Positions 4,630 to 40,367 of a DNA stretch of 64,000 bases are shown here, one piece after another. Position 1 is the stretch's first letter, and each line of letters begins with the position of its first letter. Origin of the DNA: a virus; IMG/VR virus record IMGVR_UViG_3300032236_001180, positions 32,001 to 96,000 of that record, one strand, 5' to 3'. The position numbers and the translations under genes were made by a program. Below the pieces are notes generated by a model. It did no database searches. It saw only the letters and a list, made by a program, of their open reading frames with translations, and was not told the DNA's origin.

Positions 4630-5001
4630 ATGGTTCCCTTACATTCGCCTAAGGACTATTTGTTTAATCTTCATACATCATCTAAAAGTGAAGCAAAACG
4701 ATTATGGAGACAGAATATAAAAGATGCCTGGAATCACAAATGTGCTTATTGCGAATCCGAAGAAAACATCACACTAGATCACGTTATACCTCAATGTAAG
4801 GGTGGTCTAGATATCAAAACAAATGTAGTTGCCTGTTGTCATTCTTGTAATCAATCCAAAGGTCATATTCCTTGGGAAGAATGGTATTATAATCAGTGCT
4901 TTTTTTCTATTGAGAATTATGAAAAGATTGAAGAATGGATGAAACCAGAAGCACCTATTAATATTTTTGCTTATAAACCAAGAAAAAATATCAACTACTA
5001 A
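4630..5001 (+). CDS. HNH endonuclease
   Basis: CAYC...TLDHVIPQCKGG...NVVACCHSCNQSKG; CTAAATA at 4603-4609. Confidence 0.9.
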   Translation: MVPLHSPKDYLFNLHTSSKSEAKRLWRQNIKDAWNHKCAYCESEENITLDHVIPQCKGGLDIKTNVVACCHSCNQSKGHIPWEEWYYNQCFFSIENYEKIEEWMKPEAPINIFAYKPRKNINY

Positions 5002-5712: not shown

Positions 5713-5897
5713 TGGATTCTATAAATAAGTTTGAAAGACACGGTATAAATCGTGGCGTTGAATTAATGCTTCGTCGGAGGGGAAAACGCATTCCAGAAGA
5801 ACTTAAAGAAAGAAAGTTTATTTTTGGTAGAGTTTTTTCCTTTCTGAAAAGGGAAATACGATTTAATTTTGAACTTTCTATAATTAAAAAAACGTAA
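5712..5897 (+). CDS. hypothetical basic protein
   Basis: ORF track; start uncertain because TATAAATA at 5720-5727 suggests a downstream start. Confidence 0.55.
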   Translation: MDSINKFERHGINRGVELMLRRRGKRIPEELKERKFIFGRVFSFLKREIRFNFELSIIKKT

Positions 5898-5914
5898 ATT
5901 TCCGGAGTAATAAA

Positions 5915-6187
5915 ATGACCGCACCAGAACTCACACTTTTTTGTTTAGTTAGTTTTTTATTTTTATGCGTCGGTGTAGTTGGTGGTTGGGGATTAAAGTC
6001 TTATCTAGATAATATGCTTCCTTCTAGAATGGGAGTTCTCCATCAAGAATTCTTTGATGAAAACGGTAATGTGATTGCCGATGAAGTAGTTTCTCTTCGC
6101 TTGGAATCTGGATTTATTGAAGATTTTCAAGAAGAATACGGAAGTCTTTTTGATGAAGAAGACGAAGACGACGATGATGAAGATTGA
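5915..6187 (+). CDS. hypothetical membrane protein with acidic tail
   Basis: N-terminal hydrophobic helix; EFFDENGNVI; D/E-rich C-terminus; GGAG RBS. Confidence 0.7.
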   Translation: MTAPELTLFCLVSFLFLCVGVVGGWGLKSYLDNMLPSRMGVLHQEFFDENGNVIADEVVSLRLESGFIEDFQEEYGSLFDEEDEDDDDED

Positions 6188-6231
6188 TAGATAGATAGTA
6201 TTATAAATTATTATTGATTTTTTAAACAAAT

Positions 6232-6813
6232 ATGACTGTAACATCTGCAACGAAAAAGGTAACAACTTCAAGAGTAAAAGAAGTGAGTTTGGATCTTCCT
6301 CCAAATCCACTTGTATTTGAAGTTTTGAATCTTGTATCTAAACAAAAGACAAATGCAAAGAAAGTAGAAGTTCTTAAAAAATATGAAGATCCTTCTTTGA
6401 AAGCAATTTTCATTTGGAACTTTGATGAAAGTATCATTTCACTTCTACCCGAAGGTGAAGTTCCTTTCTTTGGTGATAATGTATTAAAAACATCTACAAT
6501 TACCGAAAGAATTGGTGATGCTGTATCTACAATGAAAGGTGGAAGTTCAAATTCTCTTGGAACAATTGATGAAAAGCATTCTACGATTCGTAGAGAATAT
6601 AAGAAATTTTATAATTTCATTAAGGGCGGAAATGATAGTTTGAATAGTATTCGTAGAGAAACTATTTTCATTAATCTTCTTGAAGGTGTTCATCCATTAG
6701 AAGCAGAAATTCTTTGCTTATGTAAGGACAAAAAACTTCAAACAAAATATAAAATCACAAAAGAAATTGTATCTGAGGCATATCCAGATATTCAATGGGG
6801 CGGAAGATCCTAA
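6232..6813 (+). CDS. conserved T4-like cyanophage hypothetical protein
   Basis: WNFDESIISLLPEGEVP...FYNFIKGGN...RRETIFINLLEGVHPLEAE, recognised family pattern. Confidence 0.75.
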   Translation: MTVTSATKKVTTSRVKEVSLDLPPNPLVFEVLNLVSKQKTNAKKVEVLKKYEDPSLKAIFIWNFDESIISLLPEGEVPFFGDNVLKTSTITERIGDAVSTMKGGSSNSLGTIDEKHSTIRREYKKFYNFIKGGNDSLNSIRRETIFINLLEGVHPLEAEILCLCKDKKLQTKYKITKEIVSEAYPDIQWGGRS

Positions 6814-17743: not shown

Positions 17744-17920
17744 ATGGCTCATATGGATCTTGAGTCATATTTTAAAATTAACTTCTCGTTGATGCAGCAT
17801 CATAAATATTCTTTGACTGAAATAGAAAATCTCATACCTTGGGAACGGGATATTTACCTAGCGTTATTAAATCAGTTTATAGAAGAAGAAAATTTAAAGG
17901 CACAACAAAGTAATGGTTAA
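17744..17920 (+). CDS. g51: baseplate hub assembly catalyst gp51
   Basis: YFKINFSLMQHHKYSLTEIENLIPWERDIY. Confidence 0.88.
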   Translation: MAHMDLESYFKINFSLMQHHKYSLTEIENLIPWERDIYLALLNQFIEEENLKAQQSNG

Positions 17921-19775
17921 ATCCCCACTTAGTCCAGAAAAAATCATAGGAAATAGCAATCCAAAATCTTCCTTTGGGTTACTTTCTGGTAAGAACTTTT
18001 TGGGGTCTTCGGTTATTTCCAAATCTTCAAATAAAATTGTAGGATTTAATAGGGCAAAGGTATCTGCGAATAAAGGAGAAGTACAAAAAATAGTAAGTAA
18101 TTTAACTACAAATAATATTACTAATAGTTATAGTAATATTATAAAAAATGTTTTTGGAACTTTGCAAGCAAAACAAAATAAAGAAGAAGAAAATAAAGAA
18201 AAAAGATTTGGAATATTTGGTTTTTTTGATAGCATTAAAGATGCTTTTAATTTAATTCGTTTTGTTGGTTCAAGAAAAAATTTAGATAAAATTAAAGATA
18301 GTTTAGAAAATTTAAAAATTACTTTTTCTGAAACATTTGATACAGCAAAAATTCTTCGCAAAATTATTAAAAAAATATTTGAACAACTTTCGGGTTTATC
18401 CGGTGATGGGGGTGGAGGAAAAGGATTGTGGGGATTAATTGCGGCTGCAATCGCAAGTATAATTCGTAAATTATTTCGTGGAGTAGTCAAAACATTTTCT
18501 GATATTTTTGAAAGAATATCAAAAAATGAAAATACTATGCGAAATATTATTGATAAAGTATCGCAACCACCAACTATAGAGACGCCAGCATCACCATCAA
18601 TAGGAACTGCTGTCACAACAGCGGGGGAAGTAGCAGCAGGAGCTGGGTTGGCGGCATTTCCGGCAGCAGTAGGAACTGAAATCAAAGCATTACCAGAAGC
18701 AACAAAAGCATTACCAGAAGCAACAAAAGCATTACCAGCCGCAAAGGGAATTGGTAATGCTTTTTCAAGAATGCCAAAAATGGGTAAATTTGGACTTATT
18801 ACTGCGGGGTTGAGTTTGGCAACTCTTGGTGGATCGGCAATGATGAATAAAAGCGGTCTTTCCCAACCTGGAGATAAAGACGTTCAACCCGGAGATACTG
18901 TACCGGAAGTTCCTGGAAATGTTTTGGATAGATTCAATTCTATTTTAGATAGATTTGATAAAATACTTGATGGATTAAAAGGTGGTGGAAAAAATCCCAC
19001 TTCTACATCAAAAGGTGGGGGAAGCACATCATCTGCTGCTGGTGGTGGTAGTCCTATTGGTAGTAATCCTAGTGGTGGTGTTCCTGATGGAAAATTATTA
19101 GATCAAGCTAGTTCTGCTGTTAAAGATCCAAATGTTAAAGCATTTTTAGATACGATTGCAAATGTAGAATCTGGTGGATCATATAATGTAATTGTAGGCG
19201 GCAAAAAGTTTTCAGATTTATCTAAACATCCGGAAAGTTTTAATGCATCTGCCGGATCTGATGCTGCTGGGAGATATCAATTTATAAGCACAACATATAA
19301 TAGTATTGCTAAAAAATTAGGATTGAAAGACTTTAGTAAAGAAAGTCAAGATCTTGCAGCAGTTGAAGATTTGAGACAAAAGGGTGTATTAGATATGATA
19401 AAAACTGGAAAACCAGATCAAATACAAAAAGCTATTGATATACTTAAAACAAATGAATGGACTGGTTTACAAAGTTATAGTGGAGATCAGGGAGTAAAAT
19501 ATTTTTTAAAGAGAAAGGGGGGTTTGGCATCAACAGCACCATCACAAGAACAATTAAGATTGCCACCAGGTCAACAATCACCACAAGGAAAATCTTCACT
19601 TGTAGTATTACCTGCGGCACAACAACAAGCAACACCATCTGGTGGTGGAGGTCAAATAACTGCGCCACCATCACCAAAACAAAATGGACCAACTGCTCCA
19701 TTTTATCCATCATCAAACTATGATAATTTCTTAACATTATATTCAAGAATGGTTTATAACATTGTAGACGGATAA
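17913..19775 (+). CDS. tape-measure/hub-like protein with lambda-R-type lysozyme domain
   Basis: Position after g26-g51; long low-complexity helical protein; AFLDTIANVESGGSYN...SDAAGRYQF...FS.ESQD.AA...EWTGL near 19120-19520. Confidence 0.72.
   Translation: MVKSPLSPEKIIGNSNPKSSFGLLSGKNFLGSSVISKSSNKIVGFNRAKVSANKGEVQKIVSNLTTNNITNSYSNIIKNVFGTLQAKQNKEEENKEKRFGIFGFFDSIKDAFNLIRFVGSRKNLDKIKDSLENLKITFSETFDTAKILRKIIKKIFEQLSGLSGDGGGGKGLWGLIAAAIASIIRKLFRGVVKTFSDIFERISKNENTMRNIIDKVSQPPTIETPASPSIGTAVTTAGEVAAGAGLAAFPAAVGTEIKALPEATKALPEATKALPAAKGIGNAFSRMPKMGKFGLITAGLSLATLGGSAMMNKSGLSQPGDKDVQPGDTVPEVPGNVLDRFNSILDRFDKILDGLKGGGKNPTSTSKGGGSTSSAAGGGSPIGSNPSGGVPDGKLLDQASSAVKDPNVKAFLDTIANVESGGSYNVIVGGKKFSDLSKHPESFNASAGSDAAGRYQFISTTYNSIAKKLGLKDFSKESQDLAAVEDLRQKGVLDMIKTGKPDQIQKAIDILKTNEWTGLQSYSGDQGVKYFLKRKGGLASTAPSQEQLRLPPGQQSPQGKSSLVVLPAAQQQATPSGGGGQITAPPSPKQNGPTAPFYPSSNYDNFLTLYSRMVYNIVDG
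18684..18738 (+). repeat. 21-bp tandem repeat, about 2.6 copies (KALPEAT)
   Basis: AAAGCATTACCAGAAGCAACA exact twice plus a partial third copy. Confidence 0.9.
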
Positions 19776-31572: not shown

Positions 31573-32235
31573 ATGGCAGTTGCACCACTTAATAAGTTCC
31601 TCACATTTGCAGTTCCAGTTGCGCCAGGAGAACAAGTAGTATATACAACTCCTGTGGGAGTATCGGCAATTTTACTTTATGCTCAGGCATCAAATGTTGC
31701 TGGAATTACAACTTATCCATCATTGACATTTACACATCGCAGAACAACAATTAAAACTGGAAATGTAAGAAACAATAGAGTCATTAAAGGTGGAAAAATA
31801 TTTCCAAATGATAGTTTAATTATTATTGATGGTAGATTGGTATTAGAAAGAACGGCTTTAATTTCAGATTCAATTGTAATTTCTGGAACTCAATCTGGTA
31901 TTGTTTCAGTTACTGGTTGTAAGTATGATAACACAACAGGCATAACAACAGTTACTACAATTAGTCCCCATAACTTTTCTGTTGGGGACGAAATTACAAT
32001 GAGTGGTCTTGGATTTACTTGTAGTGGAAGCAGTGGAATTACTACTACCATATTTCCATCACCGCAAGCATCTTTTGTTGTAAGTGGAATCACTGGAAGC
32101 GTTGGAACTTCTCTTACCTTTACTACAACTAGTGGAGTAATTGCTGGAATAGCGCACACTTATGTGAGTGGAGGAAAAGTAGCTCCACTTCAAATGGAAT
32201 TTATTTGTAGTATTTTGGAAAATAGTACAGTATAA
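31573..32235 (+). CDS. small structural protein (paralogue of 51101-51442 with an extra domain)
   Basis: LNKF.T...YT.PVG...LLAQA.N...SILE. Confidence 0.65.
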   Translation: MAVAPLNKFLTFAVPVAPGEQVVYTTPVGVSAILLYAQASNVAGITTYPSLTFTHRRTTIKTGNVRNNRVIKGGKIFPNDSLIIIDGRLVLERTALISDSIVISGTQSGIVSVTGCKYDNTTGITTVTTISPHNFSVGDEITMSGLGFTCSGSSGITTTIFPSPQASFVVSGITGSVGTSLTFTTTSGVIAGIAHTYVSGGKVAPLQMEFICSILENSTV

Positions 32236-36980: not shown

Positions 36981-36987
36981 CTAAATA
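36981..36987 (+). promoter_or_regulatory. late-promoter-like CTAAATA upstream of the fibre/peptide/rSAM cassette
   Basis: Same TAAATA core seen before many late genes in this window; 26 nt before ATG 37014. Confidence 0.5.
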
Positions 36988-37013: not shown

Positions 37014-37721
37014 ATGCCAACTTATGTTAGAAGTTCTGGGCAGTGGTTGCCTGTATCTGGTTCTGTTCCAGCAGACATTAATACTATAGCATCAGCAAAT
37101 CAAGTTATATATAAAAATTCATCAAATATACCAACTGGTTCCGCTAATTTGACTTTTAGTGGTTCTAATTTGTCTTGTGGTGGTAATATATCTGCTACTG
37201 GAAATGTATCTGCTACTGGAAATGTATCTGCTAGTGGAAATGTGATTGCTTCTGGATATGGATTTTTTACAACTCCAAACTTAGGAACAACCGGTGGTGT
37301 AAGAGTGGTTGCAAACGCAACCACTGGAAATGGATATTTGCAATTTACAAATAACGCTCAGAATGCAGAATATTTTAATATTTTAGCAACTTCTGGTAGC
37401 GCAGTTTTTAGTGGTACAGTTGCAGCAAACTCCGATGTTAAGTTGAAAACTAATATTAAAACAATTTCTAATGCTTTAGATAAAGTAACTAGACTTAGGG
37501 GGGTAGAGTATGATAGAATAGATTATAATAACCATGAAATTGGCGTCATTGCTCAGGAGGTTGAAAAAGTTGTTCCAGAAGTTATTAAAGAAAATAATGA
37601 TATTAAATCAGTTGCTTATGGAAATCTAGTTGGATTGTTAATTGAAGCAATCAAGGAACAAAATCAAAAAATAGATAATCTCACAGAAGAAATAAATACT
37701 TTGAAAAATGGAGGTAAATAA
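37014..37721 (+). CDS. short tail-fibre protein with S74 chaperone domain
   Basis: GNVSAT 18-bp repeats at about 37182-37253; NSDVKLKTNIKTI.NAL.KV..LRGV, IGVIAQEVE, VAYGNLVGLLIEAIKE. Confidence 0.85.
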   Translation: MPTYVRSSGQWLPVSGSVPADINTIASANQVIYKNSSNIPTGSANLTFSGSNLSCGGNISATGNVSATGNVSASGNVIASGYGFFTTPNLGTTGGVRVVANATTGNGYLQFTNNAQNAEYFNILATSGSAVFSGTVAANSDVKLKTNIKTISNALDKVTRLRGVEYDRIDYNNHEIGVIAQEVEKVVPEVIKENNDIKSVAYGNLVGLLIEAIKEQNQKIDNLTEEINTLKNGGK

Positions 37722-37928
37722 GTGGCTGCTGTATTATATGGAACTTATATGATGGATAATGGAAATAGGGTATTGAGTTCAGTCGGAAATTGTAATTGTG
37801 CTATAGCAGATTGTGGTGATTTTCAGTGTTCTGCCTCAAATTGTTCTGGTTTAGGACAATCCAATAATCAAGTATATATAGGAGGAACTGGATTTACCAG
37901 ATACAATTGCAATTGTCAATGTGCATAA
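37722..37928 (+). CDS. Cys-rich 68-aa peptide, candidate radical-SAM substrate
   Basis: GGAGGT RBS before GTG; Cys-free N-terminal 23 aa, then 8 Cys (NCNC...DC...QC...NC...NCNCQCA). Confidence 0.72.
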   Translation: MAAVLYGTYMMDNGNRVLSSVGNCNCAIADCGDFQCSASNCSGLGQSNNQVYIGGTGFTRYNCNCQCA

Positions 37929-37930
37929 TT

Positions 37931-38698
37931 ATGTTAATTAAATCATCAACTAATAGAAAATGTGGTCCAACTCAATTTTTAGATACTATTAATATATCTA
38001 AAAATAATGAAGATTTTTTAATTGATTTTAATTTGAAAAAAAATGTAGTTTCTATTGGTTCAACTTTTGAGAATACATCAATTTTAGAACAACATAATAT
38101 ATTAAAACAAATTGAAATTAAATATAGTGATATTCAAAATCTTTCTACAGATTATGGAATTATATCTTTTTCATTAGATTATCAATATGAAAATTATATA
38201 TTAGCATCAATTACACCAAAAACTTTAAACGAAAGGAAACATTTTGCAGATTATCACAATGAAAAGAAAATTATACCCATAATTACATATTTTACTCCAT
38301 ATAAAGGATGTTCTTTTGATGAATGCAATATAGTAATAGAATGTTTAAATGAGGTAAAAACTGAAACTGATATTGTGTTTGATAGTAATATTCCATCTAT
38401 CAGAAATTTTATTGATAATGAAAATTGCTGGGGCAATTTAACTAATTACCCATCAATTATTTCCACAAATACTATAGATATTGGAAAAATATCTATATTT
38501 GAAGTAATTGTTCCGCCAAATACAACACTTTATTTGGAATCAAATATTGGAATTTTAAATAAAAGTAAAATCACACAAACTACTAATATTGAATTGGATT
38601 TAACATCTATAAAAGAAGTAACAGAAGATGTTGTTATAAAAATAAGTTCCAAATATTGGTCTGGAATTGTTAAAAAAATAATCAAAATATCTAACTAA
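37931..38698 (+). CDS. hypothetical protein (255 aa) in the rSAM cassette
   Basis: ATG 2 nt after the peptide stop; very AT-rich; beta-rich C-terminus. Confidence 0.72.
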   Translation: MLIKSSTNRKCGPTQFLDTINISKNNEDFLIDFNLKKNVVSIGSTFENTSILEQHNILKQIEIKYSDIQNLSTDYGIISFSLDYQYENYILASITPKTLNERKHFADYHNEKKIIPIITYFTPYKGCSFDECNIVIECLNEVKTETDIVFDSNIPSIRNFIDNENCWGNLTNYPSIISTNTIDIGKISIFEVIVPPNTTLYLESNIGILNKSKITQTTNIELDLTSIKEVTEDVVIKISSKYWSGIVKKIIKISN

Positions 38699-38720
38699 TT
38701 ACTTATTAATTATTCAAATT

Positions 38721-40118
38721 ATGGCAAAATTTAATGTATATGCAGTGAATTCTGAAACAGAAGAAATTCACGAATTTCTTTACGATAATGATAAATCTTA
38801 TTTATTTGACACTACAAAGGGAATTCAATATCCAAAAGAAAAACTAGAAAAAAATGAAAATAATTATAATAATATTGCATTTCCATTAACAAAAGACAAT
38901 CCAGTAAATAAAATTAGAGATTTCAGAAAGCTCAAAATTTCATTTGGATTAAAATGTAATTATTCTTGCGAATATTGCTCTCAAAAATTTGTTCCTGGCG
39001 CAGAAGTAGATAATAAAACTTTTGATTTAGATGTATATCTGAAAAAACTTTATTCAACTTTCAATTTTGGTGAAGATGGTTTAGGAAAAACAATAGAATT
39101 TTGGGGAGGGGAACCACTTTTATATTGGAATAAAATTGTTCCTATTGCAGAAAGTATTAAATTAAAATATCCAAAAATATCTTTTTCAATTATTACCAAT
39201 GGCAGTTTAATCACAAAAGAAAAAGCAGATTGGTTATATGATATGGGATTTTATGTCGGAATTAGTCACGATGGGCCGGGGCAAAAAGTAAGAGGACCAA
39301 ATCCATTTGATGTTCCCAAAATCAAAGAATCAATTTTATATCTTCATCGTAAATTTGCAGCAGAAGATAGAACCACATTCAATTCAATGCTGAATAAAGA
39401 CAATACATCAAGAAAAGCGATTGCGGATTATTTCATTGAACTTACTGGAAATAAAGATGTGAAAATTGGAGAAGGTGGTTTTGTGGATGCTTATGATGAA
39501 GGTGGATTGGAAATGAGTTTAGGAAAAGAATATTTCAAAAAATATTCTAAAAATTCATTTAAACAAATTCGTCAACATCTTTGCACTAATTTTTCTTTGG
39601 TAAAAGTTAAAATCACAAATTTCTTTCAGACATTTCATTTTGGAACTTCATCAAAAGTTATTTCGCAAAAATGTGGAATGGATAAAGAATATAATATTGC
39701 TGTTGATTTAAGCGGAAATGTGATAACTTGCCAAAATGTTTCTGCTAACGCAATTGCCCCCAATGGCAATTCGCATAAAATAGGTCATATTGATGATTTT
39801 GATAGTATTAAATTAACTACTGCAACCCATTGGAGTCATAGAAAGGATTGTTCTACTTGTCCTGTATTGCAACTTTGTCAAGGTTCTTGTATGTTTTTAG
39901 AAAGAGAATTGTGGGATGCCAGCTGTAATAATGCTTATTATGATAATATTCCTTATTTTTGTTCAGTAATTGAGCATATGACTGGATGTATTCCTATTTA
40001 CATTGATGGTGATTTGCCAGAAGAAAGAAAAGATATTTTTGGATTATTTGAAAATGGGAGGTTTTCAGAAGAAAATTTTGATTCTAAAAAGTTTTATGAA
40101 TTTTTGGAGACCCCTTGA
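38721..40118 (+). CDS. radical SAM enzyme with C-terminal SPASM domain
   Basis: CNYSCEYC (CxxxCxxC), FWGGEPLL, IITNGSL, ISHDG; SPASM-like KCG...VDLSGNVITCQ...CSTCPVLQLCQGSC...C. Confidence 0.93.
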   Translation: MAKFNVYAVNSETEEIHEFLYDNDKSYLFDTTKGIQYPKEKLEKNENNYNNIAFPLTKDNPVNKIRDFRKLKISFGLKCNYSCEYCSQKFVPGAEVDNKTFDLDVYLKKLYSTFNFGEDGLGKTIEFWGGEPLLYWNKIVPIAESIKLKYPKISFSIITNGSLITKEKADWLYDMGFYVGISHDGPGQKVRGPNPFDVPKIKESILYLHRKFAAEDRTTFNSMLNKDNTSRKAIADYFIELTGNKDVKIGEGGFVDAYDEGGLEMSLGKEYFKKYSKNSFKQIRQHLCTNFSLVKVKITNFFQTFHFGTSSKVISQKCGMDKEYNIAVDLSGNVITCQNVSANAIAPNGNSHKIGHIDDFDSIKLTTATHWSHRKDCSTCPVLQLCQGSCMFLERELWDASCNNAYYDNIPYFCSVIEHMTGCIPIYIDGDLPEERKDIFGLFENGRFSEENFDSKKFYEFLETP

Positions 40119-40143
40119 CAGGATCCAAAATGTGTGCTAGAAT
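40115..40143 (+). promoter_or_regulatory. sigma70-type promoter
   Basis: TTGACA-17 bp-TAGAAT with extended -10 TG. Confidence 0.75.
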
Positions 40144-40167
40144 GAGGAGGACCACTGTGTGCCCATA

Positions 40168-40341
40168 ATGCAAATTGATCGTGAGACCCTTCAAGAACTT
40201 CGTGATTTACAAGAAGATATGTGTTGTCATTTTGTAGATGAAAATTTTCCAATTAGCGGAGAAACTTATTGGACCTGTGTAGAAGCATTTGCACAAGCAA
40301 AACTTGCTGAACTTCGCGGGGAATTAGTTTATGATAATTGA
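40168..40341 (+). CDS. small hypothetical protein
   Basis: MQIDRETLQELRDLQED...SGETYWTCVEAFAQAKLAELRGE; alternative GTG start at 40159. Confidence 0.65.
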   Translation: MQIDRETLQELRDLQEDMCCHFVDENFPISGETYWTCVEAFAQAKLAELRGELVYDN

Positions 40342-40360: not shown

Positions 40361-40367
40361 CTAAATA
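40361..40367 (+). promoter_or_regulatory. late-promoter-like CTAAATA
   Basis: 28 nt upstream of the 2245-aa structural gene. Confidence 0.5.

Follow-up and report, generated by a model that had tools for sequence, protein, structure and literature searches.

A family of radical SAM/SPASM enzymes linked to cysteine-tailed phage fibre proteins suggests a system for modifying virion fibre tips

Introduction

What does a radical S-adenosylmethionine (rSAM) enzyme do among the tail-fibre genes of a phage, and on which protein does it act? The question is raised by a 64,000-nucleotide stretch of viral DNA, here called the window, which covers positions 32,001 to 96,000 of the IMG/VR virus record IMGVR_UViG_3300032236_001180. 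Near its middle, genes for a short tail fibre, a 68-amino-acid (aa) cysteine-rich peptide, an accessory protein (ORF3, for the third open reading frame of the cassette) and an rSAM enzyme with a SPASM domain follow one another on one strand. An initial annotation, made from the letters alone, placed the enzyme with the sactipeptide/ranthipeptide maturases, proposed a modification system resembling those of peptides that are made on the ribosome and modified after translation (RiPPs), and suggested that the product might be a component of the virion or fibre tip rather than a secreted antimicrobial.

The comparisons reported here support the view that the cassette belongs to a widespread system, with 2917 homologues of the rSAM enzyme at E ≤ 1e-20, which would apply RiPP-type radical chemistry to the fibre tips of phages. 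We set out the evidence on the partner of the enzyme and on the nature of that partner, describe the proteins of the cassette and their surroundings, and weigh the readings that compete with this one.

Results

Cysteine-tailed proteins upstream of the enzyme gene

Loci were fetched by similarity to the rSAM enzyme alone, their neighbouring genes being disregarded, and are designated below by L numbers. Three sets were assembled: 41 viral contigs, 80 of 181 relatives in species-representative genomes (mostly Limnohabitans, other Burkholderiales and alphaproteobacterial assemblies) and 80 of 487 relatives in metagenomes. The 181 relatives came from a second scan of the species-representative genomes that used an alignment as the query; a first scan of these genomes with a single rSAM sequence had returned no relative. 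One fixed definition of a tailed protein was used throughout, namely an open reading frame (ORF) of at least 50 aa on the + strand that ends no more than 6.5 kb upstream of the rSAM gene and has at least three consecutive X-Cys dipeptides in its last 25 residues.

Such a protein was found in 77 of the 86 viral and genome loci that have at least 4.5 kb of upstream DNA, against a background of 1 in 2141 other ORFs; where the upstream DNA was shorter the count was 15 of 38. For the metagenome loci the figures were 19 of 19 with at least 4.5 kb upstream (background 1 of 1079 other ORFs), 31 of 31 with at least 3 kb and 43 of 45 with at least 2 kb. When all loci with at least 4.5 kb upstream were pooled and the rSAM gene was placed by a hidden Markov model (HMM), 95 of 104 had the tail, and the background over both sets was 2 of 3220 other ORFs. 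A tailed gene, a gene of the ORF3/F4 type (F numbers denote protein families, see below) and the rSAM gene stand in this order in 81 of the 104 loci, and the window has all three. The tie between a Cys-rich ORF and the enzyme that had been proposed for the window, and the conserved order of Cys peptide, accessory gene and rSAM gene for which a survey of neighbourhoods had been suggested, are both borne out.

The family extends to isolated phages. A tblastn search of phage records found enzymes 45–49% identical to that of the window in Ralstonia phage RSP15 and in Achromobacter phages JWF and 2-1, in each of which the rSAM gene lies inside the fibre module; the JWF enzyme, gp30, was originally annotated as an anaerobic sulfatase-maturating enzyme (anSME). 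These phages figure among the pooled loci that lack a tail as defined here. Six of the nine such loci carry a variant ladder, being the two-unit tail of RSP15 (NCQCGN) and the forms of JWF, 2-1, Burkholderia paludis MSh1 and L066. In the JWF-type variants the ladder sits just ahead of the 'CFP...' of a Hint-type domain; JWF is present a second time among these loci, as its IMG/VR copy L007.

The distinct tailed proteins number 129 and are 56–616 aa long, with a median of 258. Their X-Cys runs comprise 3–9 units and end at the exact C-terminus in 68 of the 129 proteins and one residue earlier in 32. Cysteine is the sole invariant feature of the tails. The X position is filled by Asn at 425 (64%), Ala at 97 (15%) and Asp at 81 (12%) of 668 positions, so that these three residues account for 603 of the 668. 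On the strength of this linkage the rSAM enzyme is very probably dedicated to the Cys-tailed protein, that is, it acts on the tail.

Two further arrangements were seen among these loci. Three to four tandem Cys-tailed paralogues precede a single rSAM gene in L024 (133-1890) and in L025/L043 (2621-3982); their bodies differ and their tails are conserved, which looks like a set of exchangeable fibre tips. In L046 a 347-aa ORF (5735-6778) agrees with the tailed-fibre family as far as residue ~300 and continues into unrelated sequence with no Cys tail, probably through a frameshift or an assembly error in this contig of a metagenome-assembled genome.

Tail fibres as carriers of the tail

Judged by their family matches, the long carriers of the tail are tail fibres. 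Seven of ten sampled tailed proteins, all seven of at least 320 aa and some of them collagen-like, matched PHROG tail-fibre families, and the sampled proteins of 122, 176 and 290 aa gave no match to a family annotated as tail fibre. The same is seen in isolated phages: ORF048 of RSP15, annotated as a side tail fibre, ends ...SMSNTNCQCGN, and JWF gp28, a gp36-like fibre, contains ...PRQNCNCDCNCNCS directly before Cys-1 of a Hint domain (PF05203). By removing itself, this Hint domain would leave the ladder exposed as a new C-terminus. The peptide of the window can be related to these fibres by a four-round jackhmmer search of the 5361 ORFs of the fetched loci, in which its residues ~20-67 aligned with the last 45–55 residues of proteins of 200–616 aa.

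The short carriers have a distinctive neighbour. An S74 fibre gene lies no more than 1.5 kb upstream of 18 of the 37 short tailed proteins (under 200 aa), compared with 0 of 68 long ones. The S74 chaperone domain is normally cleaved off the fibre that it terminates, and a fibre whose C-terminal S74 chaperone is cleaved cannot bear a C-terminal tail; the module would therefore be supplied as a separate small protein. An S74 fibre with a separate peptide and the Hint domain of JWF may thus be two solutions that both point to a need for a free C-terminal ladder. On this evidence the 68-aa protein of the window would be a free-standing, minimal form of the module that makes up the last ~50 residues of the fibres of other phages, and it is reasonably likely that in this phage, too, the product sits in the virion. 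The initial preference for a virion or fibre-tip product over a secreted antimicrobial accords with the matches to tail-fibre families and with the RSP15 and JWF fibres.

The 68-aa peptide

The closest relatives of the cassette are L128, L127 and L004, whose rSAM enzymes are ~69% identical to that of the window. Their tailed proteins are of similar size, 87 aa in L128 with versions of 68 and 74 aa in L127 and L004, and all four proteins share the N-terminus MA(A/V)(V/T)LY..Y...NG(N/D)R, an internal Cys-rich stretch and a tail of the form Y-(N/D)-C-N-C-.... In the window the TAA of the fibre gene abuts the GTG of the peptide gene, with GGAGG 7 nt 5′ of that GTG. The S74 fibre of L128 is followed by the identical ggaggtaaataaGTG junction, including the GTG start, and then by the tailed protein. 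Because the ORF has this start, and because its N-terminus and Cys tail are kept in relatives, the 68-aa ORF is, as far as conservation can tell, a genuine gene and not a chance ORF.

The peptide consists of a conserved N-terminal section of ~17 residues, an internal NCNC...DC...QC...NC region and the C-terminal Cys tail, YNCNCQCA, the protein ending RYNCNCQCA. NCNC occurs at residues 23-26 and 62-65, so that the N-x-x-C motif of NxxcA (discussed below) is present. Among the credible genes of the window, the peptide gene alone encodes an X-Cys tail.

The peptide frame is continuous with that of the S74 fibre, with TAA between them, and we considered readthrough of this stop codon as a source of a fibre fused to the tail. 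This was rejected in view of the GGAGG sequence 7 nt 5′ of the GTG and the junction kept in L128; the normal cleavage of the S74 domain and the L029-type loci, in which fibre and tailed gene lie in different frames, likewise disfavour a fusion.

The radical SAM/SPASM enzyme

The 465-aa enzyme matches the radical SAM superfamily model PF04055 at 45.8 bits (cut-off 29.5) and the SPASM model TIGR04085 at 32.1 bits (cut-off 27). The Pfam SPASM model PF13186 found no match in it at E ≤ 1, so that the HMM searches by which the assignment was to be checked agreed with it for two models and drew a blank for the third. Its motifs include CNYSCEYC, WGGEP and C318...C337...C377xxC380x5C386x3C390...C402. 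The CxxxCxxC motif, GGEP and SPASM-like Cys cluster had been picked out in the initial annotation; the cysteines of C79xxxC83xxC86 and all seven SPASM cysteines just listed proved invariant in an alignment of 24 homologues with 45–89% identity to the window enzyme.

The highest NCBIfam matches are to maturases of Cys-containing peptides, CcpM (5.8e-18) and PapB (1e-16), then the geopeptide and HxsB families, with QhpD (TIGR03906, 8.4e-14) and anSME (3.6e-13) in the same range. A profile search of Protein Data Bank (PDB) sequences returned TigE (8vpo, 1.3e-17), CteB (5wgg, 7.9e-11) and anSME (1e-10). An AlphaFold2 model of the enzyme (pLDDT 82.3, pTM 0.84) has as its nearest folds in Foldseek CteB (5wgg, E 6e-10), TigE, anSME, ChlB, SuiB and SkfB. 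In this model residues 1-37 form a confident four-strand β unit, in which F4, Y21, N23 and S26 are invariant, and no helices precede the core. By these comparisons the enzyme is a peptide- or protein-modifying SPASM enzyme in a family of its own. The sactipeptide/ranthipeptide membership first assigned to it is not supported in that form: every NCBIfam equivalog scores far below its cut-off, and no RiPP recognition element (RRE) was detected by the Pfam and NCBIfam searches.

Some loci carry two rSAM genes of the family, which are adjacent in L027 (1672-4015; 340 and 446 aa) and a few kb apart in L040.

ORF3 and other accessory genes

ORF3 has no Pfam, NCBIfam or PHROG name. A phmmer search of 1.84 billion representative proteins gave 17 relatives at E ≤ 1e-3, and D74, G76, P123, C127, G207, K237 and W243 are invariant in the family alignment. 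Compared by hhalign, the ORF3 family matches the F4 family over 175 columns (98.4% probability, E 7.9e-15), F4 being the gene right after the tailed gene in RSP15 (ORF047) and in most viral loci. This relation is clear with profiles only, a BLASTP comparison of ORF3 with RSP15 ORF047 giving an E value of just 0.034; BLASTP found no similarity of ORF3 to JWF gp29 or RSP15 ORF046. The relation to a further family, F11, is weak and confined to a C-terminal piece of ~40 residues (61% and 35% probability). An ORF3/F4/F11-like gene lies upstream of the rSAM gene in 84 of the 104 pooled loci, and in 111 of the 116 loci that have both, fewer than 150 nt separate its start from the last tailed gene.

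The AlphaFold2 model of ORF3 (pLDDT 87.7) has a C-terminal Ig-like sandwich at residues 173-255. For this part VIA-align gave a generic Ig-like match (Z ≤ 8.7), with pilus chaperones among many unrelated Ig domains, the ESM Atlas returned Ig-like entries at TM < 0.5 only, and Foldseek found nothing in the PDB for the ORF3 model at E ≤ 1e-3. The N-terminal ~170 residues had no match in these fold searches, which used the whole model and barely tested that part. A complex prediction for ORF3 with the peptide scored 0.00, controls were not run, and the result is evidence neither way. From its conservation beside the tailed gene we infer that ORF3 is a partner of the tail, whether as a chaperone, an adaptor or a tip component.

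Most relatives, L004, L127 and L128 included, have one to five genes for 2-oxoglutarate (2OG)-Fe(II) oxygenases (PF13759/PF13640) between the F4-type gene and the rSAM gene. None is present in the window cassette, and none was found in the 124.5-kb source record, which is 59% complete. More than one kind of tail modification may therefore occur in the phages that have these genes.

Two other genes of these modules deserve mention. Where other loci have 2OG oxygenases, L001 (4988-5854; RSP15 ORF046), L006 (2785-3654) and L005 (857-1705) have between the F4-type gene and the rSAM gene a member of the F26 family, of ~285 aa, in which an H-x-D...H pattern can be seen by eye and for which there is no Pfam match at E ≤ 0.1. 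Two genes downstream of the rSAM gene in the large-myovirus group (L028-L038, L042 and L044; for example L029:7591-8538) lies a gene for a conserved 315-aa solute-binding protein of the DctP/TRAP type (PF03480, 1.2e-43), which is unusual for a phage fibre module.

Layout and surroundings of the cassette

The features of the cassette are listed in Table 1. The four tightly coupled + strand genes behind a CTAAATA motif, the short S74 fibre and the 68-aa peptide with eight cysteines were found as the initial annotation had described them. The genes are spaced by 0, 2 and 22 nt, the peptide TAA being followed by two bases and the ORF3 ATG and a 22-nt gap preceding the rSAM gene; for ORF3 a mechanical alternative start, a TTG at 37907, would give 263 aa. 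The S74 domain of the fibre lies at residues 140-191 and scores 57.5 bits against a cut-off of 22 (E 1.7e-15).

Table 1. Coordinates, in window numbering, of the features of the cassette
Feature	Position	Strand	Basis or comment
CTAAATA late-promoter-like motif	36981..36987	+	33 nt 5′ of the fibre ATG; promoter function inferred
Short tail fibre, 235 aa, C-terminal S74 domain	37014..37721	+	PF13884
Cys-tailed protein, 68 aa, 8 Cys, presumed rSAM substrate	37722..37928	+	ORF and conservation in relatives
Accessory protein ORF3, 255 aa from ATG	37931..38698	+	Profile homology to F4 family
Radical SAM/SPASM enzyme, 465 aa	38721..40118	+	PF04055, TIGR04085
Second CTAAATA motif	40361..40367	+	35 nt 5′ of the 2245-aa S74 fibre gene; downstream limit of transcription unit

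As had been noted for the cassette at the outset, the ORF list and family searches gave no transporter, protease, exporter or immunity gene between 36981 and 40367, and the leader protease and/or exporter by which a classical RiPP cluster releases a small product are absent from this interval. The cassette lies between the two CTAAATA motifs amid S74 fibre and baseplate genes, and the giant proteins encoded on either side (1577 and 2245 aa) are S74 fibres with the S74 domain at their C-termini. The motif itself is scarce in the window, with 6 copies observed against 21.3 expected from shuffled sequence. A promoter role for CTAAATA is plausible because five of the six copies lie 25–55 nt upstream of a start codon when their positions are compared with ORF starts; the sixth overlaps the stop of the ORF at 4630-5001. 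The surroundings thus suggest a late-expressed structural context for the cassette.

The source record, a virus contig from IMG/VR, is 124,555 bases long and 59% complete and carries psbA; T4-type baseplate, hub and fibre genes were found in the 64-kb window. Because of psbA in the record and these genes in the window, the source virus is, by gene content, a T4-like cyanomyovirus. A megablast search of a phage collection with the cassette found no match, and tblastn with the 620-aa ORF at 17913-19775 returned matches to lysozyme domains only.

Several features of the neighbourhood were recorded in passing. The G+C content is 0.267 at 38001-40000, over ORF3 and the rSAM gene, compared with 0.33–0.35 in the fibre genes either side, and the cassette may have been acquired horizontally. 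The region 40115-40341 holds a near-consensus sigma-70-type promoter (TTGACA-17-TAGAAT with TG, 11/12), which begins in the last codons of the rSAM gene and ends just 3′ of it, and a 60-aa ORF (40159-40341) downstream of this promoter. The ORF, of family F48, lies between the rSAM gene and the next late CTAAATA, and L004 has a 63-aa relative in the corresponding place. A short way upstream of the window, at G000:C1:29607-31372 of the source record (L125/L126), psbA (PF00124) is split into two pieces ~880 bases apart that correspond to model positions 1-174 and 172-254, which suggests an intron or an inserted element in the phage psbA. Towards the beginning of the window are genes for a Cys-rich (14 Cys, 5.8%) calcineurin-like phosphoesterase (PF00149, 781-1485) and a ThyX thymidylate synthase (PF02511, 7450-8139), which appear not to be connected with the cassette.

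Discussion

The enzyme is associated with tailed proteins, the long carriers are fibres and the cassette stands in a late structural context; on these grounds the cassette is probably expressed late and serves the maturation of a fibre tip of the virion, not of a secreted RiPP. In the mechanism that we propose, the rSAM/SPASM enzyme would bind the free C-terminal tail, and reductive cleavage of S-adenosylmethionine would generate a 5′-deoxyadenosyl radical that takes a hydrogen atom from a neighbouring residue, most likely from the β-carbon of Asn. That carbon would then be joined, through a C-S bond, to the sulfur of a cysteine held on an auxiliary Fe-S cluster. The tail module would comprise a short β-hairpin region followed by the alternating X-Cys run at the extreme C-terminus. 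Since N-x-x-C spacings overlap along N-C-N-C repeats, the rings formed would overlap as well and make up a compact ladder of redox-inert thioethers. A redox-inert crosslink would be sensible for a Cys-rich element that passes from the reducing cytoplasm into oxic water. In the window, the conserved N-terminus of the peptide may dock it onto the adjacent S74 fibre, the 235-aa protein being the probable docking partner; this part for the N-terminus, like that given to ORF3, is putative. By analogy with the systems considered next, thioether formation is a possible reaction, to which we would give an even chance.

In the NxxC system, a subfamily of the streptococcal RaS-RiPPs, the crosslink reportedly joins the N and the C of an NxxC motif, and the N-x-x-C spacing is present in every NCNC quartet of the phage tails. 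According to the excerpts of the source considered here, NxxcB forms a thioether between a Cys thiol and the β-carbon of Asn, tolerates Ala, Gln and Asp as the acceptor and strictly requires Cys, and the N/A/D spectrum of X in the phage tails consists of acceptors that NxxcB uses or tolerates (PMC9389541). NxxcA, however, is a small, quorum-sensing-linked streptococcal peptide and not a virion protein, in the phage proteins the motif recurs in overlapping copies at the very C-terminus, and the two are compared by motif, not by homology of the enzymes. A substrate of protein size is found in Methanococcus voltae, where, as excerpts of the report have it, the SPASM enzyme CrpC, with three [4Fe-4S] clusters, makes thioether (ranthionine) crosslinks on a whole Cys-rich protein, CrpA, and a third gene, crpB, is co-expressed (PMC13692751). 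In contrast to the phage carriers, CrpA is described there as an archaeal cellular protein of unknown function, and its motifs are CAGM, CAVD and CPLV rather than alternating X-C; an RRE is predicted in CrpC (PMC13692751) and was not detected in the phage enzyme, which scores 28.7 bits against the cut-off of 525 for the CrpC family (TIGR04463). PapB can also act at the C-terminal residue of a peptide (PMC12373016), which is in keeping with phage tails that are strictly C-terminal.

PapB, acting on PapA (freyrasin), and CteB (thermocellin/SCIFF) are SPASM enzymes that make multiple thioethers from Cys to side-chain carbons, and CteB is the best structural neighbour of the phage enzyme. Their substrates, however, are leader-core peptides that are released as small molecules, and CteB has 17% sequence identity to the phage enzyme in the structural alignment. 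QhpD is an rSAM/SPASM enzyme that crosslinks Cys to Asp/Glu carbons in QhpC, a small (~80-aa) Cys-rich subunit of quinohaemoprotein amine dehydrogenase that is retained in its complex. The match of the phage enzyme to the QhpD model amounts to 51 bits against a cut-off of 453, and QhpC differs from the phage proteins in being a subunit of a quinone-cofactor enzyme, not a fibre, and in having no alternating repeat.

Other readings of the cassette have to be weighed against a fibre-tip maturation system. A small Cys-rich ORF adjoining an rSAM/SPASM gene is the textbook layout of a classical secreted RiPP, and the best NCBIfam matches are to RiPP maturases. The 68-aa protein would then be a leader-core precursor, with the conserved N-terminus as a possible leader, and its modified core would be freed by lysis as an antimicrobial or signal, which would remove the need for an exporter. 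It is hard to reconcile this with the presence of the same tail at the end of tail-fibre proteins of 200–616 aa and of annotated fibres of isolated phages, with a window that has no leader protease or exporter, with a cassette that always lies inside fibre modules and with the S74 fibres that precede the short forms in 18 of 37 cases, and we regard a secreted product as very improbable. The tip might instead bind metal or an Fe-S cluster. T4 has His-x-His iron sites in the needle of its long fibre, an alternating X-C sequence puts all thiols on one face of a β-strand, the tail lies at the extreme C-terminus of fibre proteins, and no computation here fixes the chemistry; the Cys face of a probably trimeric tip could thus chelate metal, with the rSAM enzyme performing other chemistry or modifying only some of the cysteines. 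Simple metal binding does not need a dedicated SPASM enzyme, though, or explain the tight rSAM linkage, thiols left free on a particle outside the cell, in oxic water, would become oxidised, and the N/A/D spectrum of X fits thioether acceptors and not metal ligands. This explanation therefore seems unlikely to us.

A different radical reaction on the same tail is the other candidate: conversion of Cys to formylglycine in the manner of anSME, epimerisation, or C-C/C-O crosslinks, with 2OG-Fe(II) oxygenases hydroxylating Asn/Asp in relatives. The anSME enzymes have the same SPASM architecture, align over residues 78-407, nearly the whole enzyme, and rank with CteB (4th to 9th by fold), and the oxygenase genes of L004, L127, L128 and many other loci fit such a reaction. 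Yet there is no sulfatase gene, the sulfatase motif C-x-(P/A)-x-R is missing from the peptide, the anSME model TIGR03942 scores 49.3 bits against a cut-off of 349.45, and the window cassette has no oxygenase; cysteine as the sole invariant feature of the tail is what would be expected of a thiol donor. We give this alternative little credence.

A number of points weigh against the interpretation of the cassette as a thioether-forming system for fibre tips. For every member of the family the reaction and the substrate are deduced from gene linkage, and the loci behind that linkage are not independent, many being near-identical and the three collections having been ranked by similarity (rSAM identity to the window ~35–70%). 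Three of the 104 loci (L005, L040 and L046) have no ladder at all, and in 20 of the 104 no ORF3/F4/F11-like gene was detected. A word search of 5.8 billion proteins with the peptide returned only the peptide itself and no relative. Because the window peptide has neither a fibre-shaft region nor a family match, the case for placing it in the virion depends on the homology of a module that is short and biased in composition, and the jackhmmer link, an iterative run on a small database, is no more than supportive. On the side of the enzyme, the top NCBIfam matches fall 5- to 20-fold under the curated cut-offs (65 bits against 500 for CcpM, TIGR04068; 61.1 against 340 for PapB, NF047865; 33.2 against 720 for RumMC, NF035951), and no PqqD/RRE family is among the Pfam/NCBIfam matches at E ≤ 1, a dedicated RRE detector not having been part of the search. 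The initial annotation had named clustering with anSME as grounds for abandoning its proposal: the family score and the missing sulfatase motif speak against such clustering, but by profile and by fold anSME, whose product is formylglycine and no thioether, is about as near as CteB, and on these data thioether formation cannot be told apart from other SPASM chemistries. Finally, an oxygenic cyanobacterial host, indicated by psbA, is awkward for an oxygen-labile enzyme.

With these points in mind we offer the wider reading tentatively, as a possibility somewhat short of even. It holds that many tailed phages, with marine cyanomyoviruses at one end of the range and Burkholderiales siphoviruses and prophages at the other, complete their receptor-binding fibres by adding an interlocked thioether ladder, made by a dedicated rSAM enzyme with a private accessory protein and often 2OG oxygenases, even in an oxygen-evolving host. 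The ladder may hold a metal or link the tip's three chains to one another, and would represent a new class of post-translational modification of the virion that affects host recognition or tip stability.

No description of rSAM modification of phage fibres was found in the literature covered (subscription journals lay outside it), and as far as that search extends enzymatic covalent modification of phage receptor-binding tips is undescribed. An rSAM 'maturase' of cyanophage S-SCSM2R is listed among 'antibiotic synthesis genes', beside sugar-modifying genes, in a paper whose consulted excerpts contain nothing on Cys-tailed proteins (PMC12801897). The version in the window is the smallest seen here, consisting of a presumed substrate of 68 aa, a single accessory protein and a single enzyme, with no oxygenase, and for this reason it is suited to reconstitution.

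If the proposal is true, the fibre tips of hundreds of phages carry chemistry that is invisible in the gene sequence. This would bear on the prediction of host range, on structural studies of fibres and on the use of recombinant receptor-binding proteins, which would be made without the modification. A further question would be how an oxygen-labile enzyme can function while the phage infects an oxygenic phototroph. The system would also be a compact, naturally leader-independent means of tagging or stapling a C-terminus, and the thioether chemistry of rSAM/SPASM enzymes would be seen to reach structural proteins beyond the small secreted RiPPs, for which CrpC of an archaeon is so far the one recent precedent.

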